Shown piece after piece: positions 56,515 through 61,578 of a stretch of DNA of 64,000 nucleotides (the first letter of the stretch is position 1; each line of letters starts with the position of its first letter). Source of the DNA: Gemmatimonadota bacterium (GTDB lineage Bacteria; Gemmatimonadota; Gemmatimonadetes; Gemmatimonadales; GWC2-71-9); assembly GCA_039588295.1 (NCBI GenBank), contig JBDHAB010000001.1:96001-160000 (forward strand). Direction: 5' to 3'. The notes beneath the pieces are model-generated. The model made no database searches, was not told where the DNA came from, and saw only the letters and a list, made by a program, of their open reading frames with translations. Position numbers and translations under genes: made by a program.

Positions 56515-58389
56515 TCAGGCGGCCGAGCGGTTCCGACGGACGACTTCGAGCACGAGGTTCTGGAGATCGCTGGGCGAGACCCCGGGGATTCGCCCCGCCT
56601 GCGCGAGCGAGCCCGGCCGAACCCGGTCGAGTTTCTGCCGCGCCTCGGTACTCAGGCTCTTGAGGTCCAAATACCCGAGATCCGACGGGAGACGAAACCC
56701 AGCCATTTCAGCCAGTTTCTCGGCCGCGCGCCGCTCCCGCTCGAGATACCCATGGTATTTCAGCTCGATCTCCGCCGACATCCAGGATTCCGGCGTGAAC
56801 CCTTCTGGATCGGACCCCGCCCGCCGGAGCAGGTCCTCGAGAGCAAGCCCAGGGCGGCGTACCAACGCCCCGACCCTCTGACGCTCCGTGACTTCCTGCT
56901 GTCCGGCGGCTCGGAGCAGCGCGTTCGCTTCATTCGGCCGGATCGTCGTGCCCTCCGCGAGGCGAACCAGCTGTTCCTCTTGTTCTCTCCGACGATCCAG
57001 AACCGCCAGCTCGTCACTCGTAAGCAAGCCAAGGCGGGACGCCAGCGGCCCCATGCGTTTGAGCGCATTGTCCTGCCGCAGCAAGAGGCGGAACTCCGCC
57101 CGGGACGTGAAGAGCCGGTACGGCTCATCAACCCCCCGCGTAATCAGGTCATCTACCAGGACACCGAGGTACCCGTCGTCGCGACCGAGGACAACGGGTT
57201 CCTCACCCCGCCCACGCCGGATCGCGTTGATGCCAGCGAGCACTCCCTGCCCCGCAGCTTCTTCATACCCCGTGGTTCCGTTAATCTGGCCCGCGAAGAA
57301 GAGGCCGGCGATGGCCTTGACCTCGAGCCACGGCGTGAGTTGCTGTGGTGGGTAGTAGTCGTACTCGATCGCATAGCCCGGACGAGTCATTTTGGCATGC
57401 TCAAGTCCCGTAACTGCTTGTAAGAATTGCAGTTGTATGTCCGCAGGCAGCGACGTGGAGAGGCCGTTGACGTAGAGTTCGGTCGTCTCGAGGCCCTCAG
57501 GTTCGAGGAAGATCTGGTGCCGCTCCGCCTCGGGGAACCTGATCACTTTATCCTCAATCGACGGGCAGTATCGCGGCCCGCGCGCAGCGATTGCCCCGCC
57601 GTAGAGCGCTGACTCATGCAAATGGCGCCGGATAATCCCCTTCACCCCCTCGCCCGCCCACGTGATCCAACACGGTCGCTGCTCCGGAGAGTGCGGCTGC
57701 ACGAAATGCGAGAAGCAAAAGCCCGGGTCGTCCGCATCCTGACGCTCGAGCCTCGCGAAATCGACGGAGCGGCCGTCGACCCGCGGCGGCGTCCCCGTCT
57801 TGAAGCGATCGACTTCCAGCCCTAGCGCTTCCAGCTGCTCGGCAATGTCGACTGCTGCCGGGTCACCGGCGCGCCCTCCGTCCAATCGGGTGGTCGTGCC
57901 GATGTGAATCTTGCCGCGCAGGAACGTTCCCGCTGTGAGAATCACGGACGTTCCGCGAACCAGACGATCGTCGGCAAGTCGCACACCGACGACCGCATCG
58001 CCCTCGAGCGCCAGCGCCTTCACCGTGGCCTGGAGAAGATCGATTCCCCGCTGCTCCTCGAGGAGCGAGCGCACTGCACGCCGGTACAGTCCGCGATCAC
58101 ACTGTGCCCGGGGCGCCCATACCGCAGGTCCCTTCGATCGATTGAGCATGCGGAACTGAATGGTCGCGCGATCGGCCGCCCGCCCCATGACCCCACCCAA
58201 CGCATCGACCTCACGCACGACCGTCCCCTTCGCAACGCCGCCGATCGCGGGATTACAGGACATTTGGCCAATCGTGTCCAAGCTCGACGTGACCAACAGT
58301 GCCCGAGCTCCGAGACGCACCGCCGCGGTGGCCGCCTCGGAGCCGGCGTGACCTCCGCCAATCACGATGACGTCATAGGGTGCGTGCAT
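56515..58389 (-). CDS. mnmG: tRNA U34 carboxymethylaminomethyl modification enzyme
   Basis: GGGHAG, MSCNPAIGG, KTGTPPR, GPRYCPSIEDK, AGQINGTTGYEEAA. Confidence 0.97.
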   Translation of the reverse strand: MHAPYDVIVIGGGHAGSEAATAAVRLGARALLVTSSLDTIGQMSCNPAIGGVAKGTVVREVDALGGVMGRAADRATIQFRMLNRSKGPAVWAPRAQCDRGLYRRAVRSLLEEQRGIDLLQATVKALALEGDAVVGVRLADDRLVRGTSVILTAGTFLRGKIHIGTTTRLDGGRAGDPAAVDIAEQLEALGLEVDRFKTGTPPRVDGRSVDFARLERQDADDPGFCFSHFVQPHSPEQRPCWITWAGEGVKGIIRRHLHESALYGGAIAARGPRYCPSIEDKVIRFPEAERHQIFLEPEGLETTELYVNGLSTSLPADIQLQFLQAVTGLEHAKMTRPGYAIEYDYYPPQQLTPWLEVKAIAGLFFAGQINGTTGYEEAAGQGVLAGINAIRRGRGEEPVVLGRDDGYLGVLVDDLITRGVDEPYRLFTSRAEFRLLLRQDNALKRMGPLASRLGLLTSDELAVLDRRREQEEQLVRLAEGTTIRPNEANALLRAAGQQEVTERQRVGALVRRPGLALEDLLRRAGSDPEGFTPESWMSAEIELKYHGYLERERRAAEKLAEMAGFRLPSDLGYLDLKSLSTEARQKLDRVRPGSLAQAGRIPGVSPSDLQNLVLEVVRRNRSAA

Positions 58390-58481
58390 AAGCGAAGGAA
58401 CATACACCGGGGAGAGCCAATCGGGGACATTGACCCGTCTGAGCGCGCGCAAACCGGGGCGGCGCCCGTACTACAATCCCG

Positions 58482-59407
58482 CGCCGGAGACGGCGCCCAC
58501 AGACCCGGACCATCCGGTGCATGGCACTGTCCGTTCCTTGTTCTGAGACTGTCATTATAGTGTCTCAACTCCAAGCCCTGATCCGGCGCAGAGGTCTGCG
58601 GAGTCGGGGGCGCGTGCCATAGATGAGAATGCCGACCCAAAGTGGATTCGCGCGGCGGCCCGCGTGGCGAGCCGCAACCCAACAGACGAGCAAACGCAAC
58701 TCGAGAGGGCGACCGCCGGAGACGGGGCTCCACTATACCCGGACGCCAACAAGGCAGGCAGTGTCAGTTGTCTGTTCTGAGTCTATCGTGATTACCGTTC
58801 TAGATCCTAGGCCCTGATCCAGCACGGAAGCTCCCGTAGTCGGCGACGCTTGCCGCACATTCAGTATGCCGACCCGGTAGATTCGCGCGGCGACCCACGC
58901 GACGAGTGGCAGCCCAACGACCAGCAACACAATCGAGAGCGCGAGCATCGGAGACGGAACTCCACTCCACCCGAACGACCCCAAGGCCGCGCACTGTCAG
59001 TTGTCTGTATTGAAACTGACGCTACAGCGTCAAAGCCCTAGGCTCTGACCCAGCGCAGCAGCTCGCGTGGCCGGGGACGCTTGCCATACATCAGTATGCC
59101 GACCCGGTAGAGTCGCCGCGGCGCCCTACGTGACGAGCAGCAGCCCAACGACCAGCAACACAATTGAGAGCACGAGCATCGGAAGACGGAACTCCACTCC
59201 ACCCGAACGGCCACAAGGCGCTGCACTGTCGGTTGTCTGTATTGAAACTGACGCTACAGCGTCAAAACCCTAGGCTCTGATCCAGCGCAGCAGCTCGCGT
59301 GGCCGGGGACGCTTGCCATACATCAGTATGCCGACCCGGTAGATTCGCGCGGCGACCCACGTGACGAGCAGCAGCCCAACGACCAGCAACACAATCGAGA
59401 GCGCGAG
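58482..59407. repeat. Tandem array of four ~232-bp units (permease 3' end plus spacer)
   Basis: Stop-codon-equivalent positions at 59270, 59038, 58807, 58571 (periods 232, 231, 236). Confidence 0.95.
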
Positions 59408-60541
59408 TTCCGTGAACGGCACCGTCGCGGCTGCCCAGCGCACTGGCATGGCGATGGGCGAGCAGAAGGGAATCAGTGATAGGGTGATCGCCAGCGCCCC
59501 ATCCGGCTGCTGCAGGATGCCCAGCATCAAGATCACGGGCACAATGAGCAGCATCACCACGGGGGTCTGTGCTTGGCGTGCCTCGGCTTCTGAGTTCGAC
59601 ATCGCCGCGACGGCAGCGAACATCGCCGCATAGAGGAAATAACCCAGCAGGAAGTACGTGAGGACAATGAGTAGGGTGGCCAACGAAACCTCGGGTAGCG
59701 GGAAGCTCTGGCCGACCGCTGCATCCACCCCCGCCAGCTCCATGACCAGATCCCGACGCTTGAATAACACCCAGGCCGATAATCCCCAGATCAGAAACTG
59801 AAACAACCCGACCGCTCCCACACCGATCACCTTGCCCGCCAGGAGTTGGAACGGCCTGAGGCTGGAAACCAGCACCTCGACGATGCGAGACGTCTTCTCC
59901 TCTACTACCGACCCAAGCACCTGTACTCCATACAGCAGGATCCCCACGTACAACAGGATCCATACGGCGTAGGCCAGAATGAACGCGGATTCACCCGACT
60001 CGTCCGTCACCCGACCGCCGCGAATACTCACCGTGCGCATTCGCACGGGAATCTGCGCCTGCGCCACCTGTTCTGGGTCAACTCCGATGCGGCCCAGGCG
60101 CTCAGCAAGCACGGTTTCACGGATCAACCGCTCCAAGAGCTGCATGTCAGCGAACGACGAGACATTGGCCCCGCGATACTCGACGTGCCCATCCTCGACC
60201 GCCTCTCCAGACACGATCAGGTAACCGTCCAGTTGCTTCTCCCCGACGACCGCGTTCAATGAGTCCGTCGTCGACTCCAACGCGGCCACCTCCACCTCGA
60301 GCAGCACGGCACTCAGTGGGGCCGGACCGTTGAACACGTCGACGAGACGGTTGGCGAAGTCATCCCCGGCGACATCGATGACCGTGATCTGGCGGCGGCG
60401 GCCACCGCGCTCCGCCATCAGTATCGGCAGTACGACAATCACTGCCATGAGAACGGGTCCGAGAACGGTCGAAACGATGAACCACTTGTTGCGGACCTTC
60501 TCGACGAACTCGCGCCGGATGACCACCCAGATCTTACGCAT
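59270..60541 (-). CDS. ABC-2 type exporter permease (NatB/YhaP-like)
   Basis: VIRREFVEKVR, VVEEKTSRIVEVL, GKVIG, RIYRVGILMYGKRP. Confidence 0.92.
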   Translation of the reverse strand: MRKIWVVIRREFVEKVRNKWFIVSTVLGPVLMAVIVVLPILMAERGGRRRQITVIDVAGDDFANRLVDVFNGPAPLSAVLLEVEVAALESTTDSLNAVVGEKQLDGYLIVSGEAVEDGHVEYRGANVSSFADMQLLERLIRETVLAERLGRIGVDPEQVAQAQIPVRMRTVSIRGGRVTDESGESAFILAYAVWILLYVGILLYGVQVLGSVVEEKTSRIVEVLVSSLRPFQLLAGKVIGVGAVGLFQFLIWGLSAWVLFKRRDLVMELAGVDAAVGQSFPLPEVSLATLLIVLTYFLLGYFLYAAMFAAVAAMSNSEAEARQAQTPVVMLLIVPVILMLGILQQPDGALAITLSLIPFCSPIAMPVRWAAATVPFTELALSIVLLVVGLLLVTWVAARIYRVGILMYGKRPRPRELLRWIRA

Positions 60542-61496
60542 CGGCACGCTCCTCCTCGGCCCGCGGGGCGAGTGCGTCGGCACCGACCAGGTCAATGAAG
60601 ATCTTGTTCAACGTGGGCTCCGCGACCTCGAACCGGCTCACCCGCGCCCCAGCGCGCACGATCTCCCCAAGCAGTCGCTGTGGGTCGGCGTCATCCGCCA
60701 GCTCCAGCTCGGCATACTGCCCGTAGCTGTCGGACTTCGCGACCAACGCGGGATCGCTCAGCACAAAACCGATCGAGGCGAGGCCATTCTCAACCGCGAT
60801 AATCACATGTTGCCCACCGTGCTCGCGTTTGACGTCCGCCAGGCGTCCGTCGACCACCTTCTCACCACGGGCAATGATGCAGACGGAGTCGCAGAGCTTC
60901 TCTGCTTGCTCCATGATGTGCGTCGAGAACAACACGGTCGTTCCCTGGCGCGCCAGCTCCATGACGACGTCCTTCATGAGCTGTGTGTTAACGGGATCGA
61001 AGCCGGAAAACGGCTCGTCGAGGATCAGCAGTTCCGGTTCGTGAAGCACCGTCGAAATGAACTGCACTTTCTGTTGCATGCCCTTCGAGAGGTCGTCCAC
61101 CCGCTTTGCCGCCCAGTCCATGAGGCCCAACCGATCCAGCCAGTGACGTGACTGACGCTTGGCAGCGCGGCGACGGACCCCCTTCGCCTCCGCCAAAAAC
61201 ACCAGCAGGTCCAGCACTTTCATCTTCCGGTACAGCCCTCGCTCCTCTGGGAGATACCCAATGCGATGGCTCAGGTCGCGACCCGATGCCGGCACACCGA
61301 ACAAGGTGATGCCACCCTCGTCCGGCACGATGATGTTCATGATCATCCGGATCGTGGTCGTCTTTCCCGCTCCGTTGGGACCAAGAAGCCCGTAGACCGC
61401 CCCGCGTGTCACGCCGAGGGTGAGTTCCCGAACAGCGGTGTGTCCGGTATACCGCTTGGTGATGCTGCGAATGTCGATGACGAGGTCGTTGCGCAT
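60534..61496 (-). CDS. ABC exporter ATP-binding protein (NatA/YhaQ-like)
   Basis: GPNGAGKTT, LSKGMQQK, LILDEP. Confidence 0.95.
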   Translation of the reverse strand: MRNDLVIDIRSITKRYTGHTAVRELTLGVTRGAVYGLLGPNGAGKTTTIRMIMNIIVPDEGGITLFGVPASGRDLSHRIGYLPEERGLYRKMKVLDLLVFLAEAKGVRRRAAKRQSRHWLDRLGLMDWAAKRVDDLSKGMQQKVQFISTVLHEPELLILDEPFSGFDPVNTQLMKDVVMELARQGTTVLFSTHIMEQAEKLCDSVCIIARGEKVVDGRLADVKREHGGQHVIIAVENGLASIGFVLSDPALVAKSDSYGQYAELELADDADPQRLLGEIVRAGARVSRFEVAEPTLNKIFIDLVGADALAPRAEEERADA

Positions 61497-61552
61497 GGCC
61501 CAGCCTACGGGAGAACGTGGCGAGCGTACGATAACGGGCACGCCAACGCCTG

Positions 61553-61578
61553 GGAACCCAACCATTGAGCGCCCCGTT
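61553..61578 (+). promoter_or_regulatory. ECF-sigma-type promoter
   Basis: GGAAC-N17-CGTT upstream of the anti-sigma gene. Confidence 0.55.

Follow-up and report, generated by a model that had tools for sequence, protein, structure and literature searches.

In Escherichia coli, the tRNA gene tyrT is followed by 178-bp repeats in which about 19 nt of the gene end plus spacer recur about three times, and which are said to encode a small protein; a literature search for these repeats returned nothing relevant. When integrative elements accumulate in tandem at a target gene's 3' end, att-site remnants are left as direct repeats of the gene end downstream of the gene, a process that needs a recombinase and element DNA between the repeats. 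Behind a live gene, orphan cdiA-CT/cdiI and rhs 3' ends form a polarised row, and they are regarded as ancestral modules that newly introduced ones have displaced (PMC9086364). These orphans are distinct functional toxin domains with immunity genes, often foreign. Finally, bacterial tandem duplications and amplifications consist of head-to-tail units with short founding homology and later exchange between units. A review describes amplification junctions with microhomology or with no homology and, on unequal recombination, lists Anderson & Roth 1981 and Reams et al. 2012 among its references (PMC11721125).

The locus described here shares features with each of these. It lies in a window of 64,000 nt (the whole stretch of DNA that was analysed) from a 4.5-Mb, 160-contig metagenome-assembled genome of the Gemmatimonadota, that of an uncultured bacterium from sediment. 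Four head-to-tail units of 232 bp occupy positions 59407-58482 of the minus strand, just upstream of mnmG, and each is made up of the last 138 nt of an ABC-2 permease gene and about 93 nt of spacer. A prior sequence-only reading had placed the gene's own tail at 59270-59407, displaced copies at 59038, 58807 and 58571, and the end of the last spacer at 58482. All of these coordinates were exactly reproduced by cutting the units anew at the tail start and the stop-codon position, which gives four tails (T1-T4) and four spacers (S1-S4). Tandem Repeats Finder reports the array at 58578-59407 (period 232, 3.6 copies, 83% matches, score 1055). The order on the minus strand is ABC ATPase, permease, array, mnmG and then the parA and parB ORFs, with the following features:

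60534..61565, minus strand: gene for an ABC transporter ATPase, the permease's partner upstream, with a provisional start codon (PF00005, E 2e-27; PF13732)
59270..60541, minus strand: gene for an ABC-2 family permease of 423 aa, with its ATG at 60541 (PF12698, E 5e-45)
59270..59407, minus strand: T1, the gene's own functional tail, 138 nt (46 codons with the stop), in frame and intact
59177..59269, minus strand: S1, spacer 1, 93 nt; directly after the stop comes a perfect 6-bp palindrome, TGACGC-TGTA-GCGTCA
59038..59176, minus strand: T2, dead tail copy, 6 substitutions including W17 to stop, plus a 1-nt insertion
58946..59037, minus strand: S2, spacer 2, 92 nt, 92% identity to S1
58807..58945, minus strand: T3, dead mosaic tail, 13 substitutions and a 1-nt insertion against T1
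58714..58806, minus strand: S3, spacer 3, 93 nt, identity 71% to S1 and 79% to S4
58571..58713, minus strand: T4, the most decayed tail, 24 substitutions, several indels, without a stop codon
58482..58570, minus strand: S4, last spacer, 89 nt, bordering the unique DNA in front of mnmG
56515..58389, minus strand: mnmG (gidA), ATG at 58389 (PF01134, E 1e-152), with which relatives align from residue 1

Realignment gave exactly the differences that had earlier been counted by hand, six substitutions and one indel in the second copy and 13 and one in the third. Against T1, T4 shows its 24 substitutions together with 7 gap columns, and whole units 1 and 4 match at 173 of 239 columns, about 72%, close to the rough 70% first put on the fourth copy. 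S1 and S4 are 69% identical, and the perfect palindrome right behind the stop is common to S1 and S2. The period is constant (231-232 over four units), and the novel junction of a spacer end with a tail start is present three times. Tandem Repeats Finder reported 21 rows with a period of at least 100 in the assembly; in 20 the period is divisible by three, as is typical of repeats inside coding sequence, and this array is the sole exception. The array is far beyond chance. It is a single locus in the genome, where the only other match to the unit is the 73%-identical tail of a 31%-identical paralogue (contig C107), and no further tail copy was found.

Orthologues align to permease residues 1-423, with the tail AARIYRVGILMYGKRP..RW.R conserved. 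In front of mnmG, a -10-like TATGTT, with the whole array upstream of it, lies at 58404-58399, 9-12 nt before the ATG and without a visible ribosome-binding site, and same-genus relatives have a TATGTT, TATCTT or TTATTA box at the same distance of 9-12 nt, again with no visible ribosome-binding site. This suggests that the mnmG mRNA is leaderless or nearly so; the longer TTG start at 58452 is probably not used. The parAB-rsmG-mnmG neighbourhood might also suggest a replication origin, a candidate that we rejected, GC skew being negative throughout the window with no switch.

Set beside the described systems, the array has the unit design of the tyrT repeats, a gene end plus downstream spacer reiterated directly behind the gene. 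The likeness drawn in the sequence-only reading is thus apt as to geometry, but here the gene codes for a protein and not a tRNA, the piece repeated is 138 nt long and all copies are broken. Compared with the cdiA-CT and rhs orphans, the row of gene ends is similarly polarised; here, however, the same membrane-helix tail is found in every copy, the copies are in-lineage and broken, and no gene or ORF partner lies between them. Direct repeats of a gene 3' end downstream of the gene are likewise common to this locus and att-site accretion, yet between the tails there are only 89-93 nt of homologous spacer, and the array contig (C1) has no match to PF00589. The array fails the defining features of both cdiA-CT/rhs arrays and att-site accretion, being without distinct functional modules, foreign DNA or, in the PF00589 family, a recombinase on its contig. 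With tandem amplifications it shares the head-to-tail units and the later exchange between them, and perhaps a short founding homology. Amplifications on record tend to span kilobases and to be young, unstable and under selection for gene dosage, whereas this array has units of 232 bp and contains no whole gene; since its copies differ by 8-30%, it is a fossil and not an active amplification.

The sequence-only reading had proposed comparing the tails with orthologous permeases and looking for copies in related genomes. Orthologous loci were collected from 40 related genomes, 80 metagenome loci and 75 species-representative loci (Gemmatimonadota/Gemmatimonadales MAGs). Records with less than 45% identity, those in which the tail was not reached, those with less than 250 nt downstream and duplicates were dropped, leaving 94 distinct relatives, one of which (L014) comes from an unpublished genome (G021). 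The closest relative has 80% protein identity among metagenome contigs and 75% among genome collections. None of the 94 carries a direct copy (at least 40 nt) of its own tail downstream by blastn and tblastn; the duplication is apparently lineage-specific. Where the gap between permease and mnmG is of the usual kind in these relatives, its median is 91 nt. Over 135 aligned tail positions, the p-distance from T1 is 0.043 for T2, 0.094 for T3 and 0.175 for T4, whereas the nearest of 81 orthologous tails stands at 0.25 from T1, 0.28 from T3 and 0.33 from T4. The displaced tails, at 0.04-0.18, are thus nearer to T1 than any orthologue (at least 0.25), which argues that they arose within this lineage, and these distances mark them as in-lineage paralogues that no sampled relative can have donated. 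For the spacers, neither the other 185 loci fetched nor the rest of the genome gave a match. A mobile repeat family was rejected as a candidate: unit and spacers occur only at this locus in the genome, and in none of the 185 loci.

The permease-mnmG gap of relatives has contents of its own. In 30 of the 94 it holds one small gene of PF05635, the "23S rRNA intervening sequence protein" family (for example L062:3400-3813, on the minus strand of the locus, and L017:938-1315, with 28 further loci), and the gap then has a median of 562 nt against 91 otherwise. The gene is on the same strand as the permease in 10 loci, among them the one from the unpublished genome, and on the opposite strand in 20. 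Inverted repeats composed of TAGACGGC-like octamer runs flank it in the loci read; their left arm begins at the permease stop codon and their right arm ends at the mnmG -10-like box. The insert looks like an invertible or independently inserted IVS-like cassette. The possibility that the array spacers are remnants of these inverted repeats was considered on account of AGAC / CCGTCT motifs picked out by eye, and rejected, blastn-short at E<=1 giving nothing beyond 13-mers. A DUF4136 (PF13590) lipoprotein-like gene occupies the same gap in two closer relatives with permease identity of 69-71% (L080:680-1222 and L048:4290-4862), so the site is variable across the group. In the array-bearing genome (G000), a PF05635 query (from L062) matches C76:4326-4649 (41.7%) and C16:1785-2030 (29.3%); these contigs, and the one with the genome's reverse transcriptase match (C111), are all away from the array.

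Within the array, divergence does rise with distance from the gene, as had been claimed, but the ladder is not clean, because unit 3 is a mosaic of a young 5' and an old 3' part. In the four-unit alignment, 16 sites group units 1 and 2 against 3 and 4, one groups 1 with 3, and none groups 1 with 4; all 16 are at columns of at least 112, which places them in the spacer or within ~30 nt of the tail's end. Of the differences between T3 and T1, three fall in the first 88 nt and 10, plus the 1-nt insertion, in the last 50 (Fisher p 0.002), whereas T4 has no such split (13/88 against 11/50, p 0.35). With 0.14 changes per site in the unit 3 spacer, about 12 would be expected in the first 88 positions of T3, where three are seen (Poisson P 0.002). 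The young block thus comprises T1, S1, T2, S2 and ~90 nt at the start of T3; what remains of unit 3 is old, as is unit 4. A short contig from a separate sediment study (X4, see below) carries five clustered differences at 58978-58990 that turn S2 letters into S1 letters, while two other sites distinguishing S1 from S2 keep the S2 state. We read the T3 mosaic and this patch as marks of exchange or conversion between units. No one unequal crossover could be constructed that gives both a young unit 2 and a young 5' end of T3, so a single-event model was set aside, and the history needs a minimum of one further conversion.

None of the three distal tails is still intact: a stop and a frameshift disable T2, a frameshift disables T3, and indels together with the loss of its stop disable T4. 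In the sequence-only reading they had been taken for older functional tails, on the strength of synonymous third-position changes in copies 3 and 4 and of Leu in both where the gene's KRPRP has Pro. The listed changes are indeed present, but their excess is not significant. Allowing for the observed transitions and transversions, synonymous differences number 6/13 in T3 against 4.4 expected (P 0.25), 10/23 in T4 against 7.3 (P 0.17), and 14/33 against 10.6 in the two together with shared sites counted once (P 0.14). An even spread over codon positions had been named as speaking for plain neutral duplication, together with the lack of a positional gradient. The pooled counts of 8/10/15 do not depart significantly from even (chi-square p 0.31), while the distance gradient is present, and the functional-tail reading finds no statistical support. 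A mild synonymous trend is expected anyway, because some of the differences arose on the selected T1 lineage. The young pair points the same way: S1 and S2, with both copies free, differ by 7.6%, and T1 and T2, with one copy free, by 4.3%, as neutrality predicts. As to the Pro site in KRPRP, both T3 (CTA) and T4 (CTC) have Leu, and eight same-genus genomes have Pro in six cases, Ala in one and Leu in one. Given Pro in six of eight, Leu is more simply derived in a dead ancestor, and this single site hints at a change in the dead ancestor of both copies instead of an older functional state.

Taken together, we think it likely that the array results from local tandem segmental duplication, followed by unequal exchange and gene conversion and by neutral decay, and that it is not a device. 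The recurring duplication that the sequence-only reading had named as its alternative is supported by the constant head-to-tail period and the in-lineage copies. We infer that the array began with one duplication of a 232-bp stretch, which comprised the last 46 permease codons and the adjoining ~93 nt of permease-mnmG spacer. Two similar 11-mers 232 bp apart, GCCGTTCACGG on the gene side and GCCGTCTCCGG on the spacer side, may have given rise to it through slippage or illegitimate recombination. The proposed endpoints are:

59410..59420, minus strand: GCCGTTCACGG in the gene just before T1, proposed upstream founding endpoint, resembling GCCGTCTCCGG
58484..58494, minus strand: GCCGTCTCCGG at the end of S4, proposed downstream founding endpoint, like the GCCGTCTCCGG that ends every spacer

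The two are now 926 nt, or four units, apart. Their match is imperfect (9-10/11 with one indel) and could equally reflect a border of the repeat that has decayed. From the second copy onwards, units would have been added and patched by homologous unequal exchange and gene conversion. Selection would hold only the copy joined to the gene body; the others, being dead, would decay at the neutral rate, and the outer, older copies would therefore be the most diverged. The oldest spacer split is at about 0.29-0.31 per site, that of S3 and S4 at 0.21 and that of S1 and S2 at 0.08. Besides the imperfect endpoint match, several points count against the duplication reading. First, ~700 bp of useless DNA must have survived for long if its dead copies have diverged by 20-30%, which is unusual in bacterial genomes given their deletion bias. 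Second, the T3 mosaic needs a separate conversion event. Third, there is the non-significant trend towards synonymous change.

The explanation put forward in the sequence-only reading was serial replacement of the 3' end. Here imported DNA, in the form of an integrative element or of a fragment that recombines within the conserved tail, would repeatedly lay a new tail and spacer next to the gene and push the old live tail outwards, the distal copies being fossils of ends that once functioned. We regard this as unlikely. It would account for the growth of divergence with distance, for the mild synonymous trend, and for three states that T3 and T4 share against T1 and T2, two of them synonymous and one at a variable residue. 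The T3 chimera, young in 5' and old in 3', is also what a crossover inside the tail would give, and the same intergenic site takes foreign genes in relatives (the PF05635 gene in 30 of 94, DUF4136 genes in two). However, the tails are much closer to T1 than to any of the 81 orthologues, and the spacers are mutually homologous and unique to the locus, so there is nothing foreign between the tails. None of the 30 relatives with an inserted PF05635 gene at the site has a tail duplication. The synonymous excess is not significant, and Leu at the KRPRP site is more simply derived in dead copies. Nor is there machinery at hand in the two families searched: the tyrosine recombinase family PF00589 has 13 matches in the genome and the reverse transcriptase family PF00078 one (C111:2035-2706, E 3e-35), none of them on the array contig, which for these families bears out the earlier statement that no recombinase or reverse transcriptase is present in the window and weighs against the integrative element that had been invoked alongside it. 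Since tandem duplicates are identical at birth, serial replacement predicts nothing beyond plain duplication unless the donor is foreign.

A bolder variant, which we consider distinctly unlikely, would see the array as a stack of "empty" tail-targeted insertions. The tail would be a landing pad for an integrase-independent, homology-driven process, and the units would record successive imports and not internal duplications. If true, the same process would place single foreign genes (PF05635 in either orientation, DUF4136) at the site in relatives, re-laying the gene end and displacing the previous one each round.

It is also quite improbable, in our view, that the array is kept because it is functional, whether as terminators or insulators between the transporter operon and mnmG, as a 3'UTR-derived RNA or as a source of small membrane peptides. 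Its long persistence despite 20-30% divergence would fit such a role, as would the perfect palindromes of S1 and S2 right after the stop. So would the S1-to-T2 and S2-to-T3 junctions, which read GATG followed by CTC; the ATG shares the tail's frame, and a GGAG stands 11 nt upstream. If intact, such a unit (unit 2 at 58946-59176, unit 3 at 58714-58945) would encode a 46-residue single-helix peptide equal to the permease C-terminus, and both copies are broken. The junction ORFs amount to 17 aa in unit 2, are frameshifted in unit 3 and have no ATG in unit 4. A known RNA family was rejected, Rfam giving no match at E<=1 in 57500-60500, and so were promoters and terminators, with zero promoter-like and zero terminator-like sites scored in the array; the consensus fold of the four spacers has a covariation term of 0.06 kcal, essentially none. 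The array is, moreover, present in none of the 94 relatives.

That an assembler concatenated strain variants of one tail and spacer is highly improbable, even though the genome is metagenome-assembled in 160 contigs. Contigs that a different assembler had built from public sediment runs, marine and other, were aligned to 58000-60000, two of the runs (X1 and X2) belonging to one study and the third (X4) to another. X1 and X2 may be the source sample, and are then not independent of the assembly. Their contigs match at 100% while bridging T1 to S1, T3 to S3, S3 to T4, T4 to S4 and S4 to unique DNA, with at least 31 nt on both sides; they cross from S1 into T2 by 23 nt with T2-specific letters, and from S2 into T3 by 30 nt. 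In X4, a 231-nt contig bridges S2 to T3 with at least 31 nt on each side, carrying six other letters and one inserted A. The question whether reads support the array, raised with the sequence-only reading, is thus answered at the level of contigs from three runs and two studies, which carry all junctions save T2 to S2; none spans the array, so copy number is not fixed independently. Copy-number variation is a hallmark of recombination-driven arrays, and no joint of a deletion form occurs among the contigs at 58000-60000, which are short. Against an artefact there is also the novel spacer-to-tail junction in three diverged versions, the position of the array deep within a contig of more than 470 kb, and the mosaic units, which concatenated strain bubbles are not expected to give. 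The structure of the array is supported by the contigs from three runs.

Remains of a diversity-generating retroelement, with the gene 3' end as variable repeat and template repeats downstream, have practically no chance of being the explanation: the 3' end is similarly repeated just downstream, and in relatives the site often holds a gene of PF05635, a family that DGR Avd proteins may resemble, but the differences are not adenine-specific (A at 2/6 T1/T2 differing sites on either side), the sole PF00078 match is on another contig, the genome has no further tail copy except the paralogue's own tail, and the repeat includes non-coding spacer and its copies are frame-broken, so that we rejected it on mutation spectrum and on the location of the reverse transcriptase.

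If local duplication is the correct reading, the mechanism is an ordinary one, and the locus adds little beyond natural history. It would nevertheless provide a clean, datable example of how a short gene-end duplication ages, with one copy selected, the others decaying and conversion patching them. That ~700 bp of DNA with no apparent use should have lasted until 20-30% divergence is mildly surprising in a bacterium. The array would also show that a polarised row of tail copies can arise without a cassette, without import and without a recombinase.
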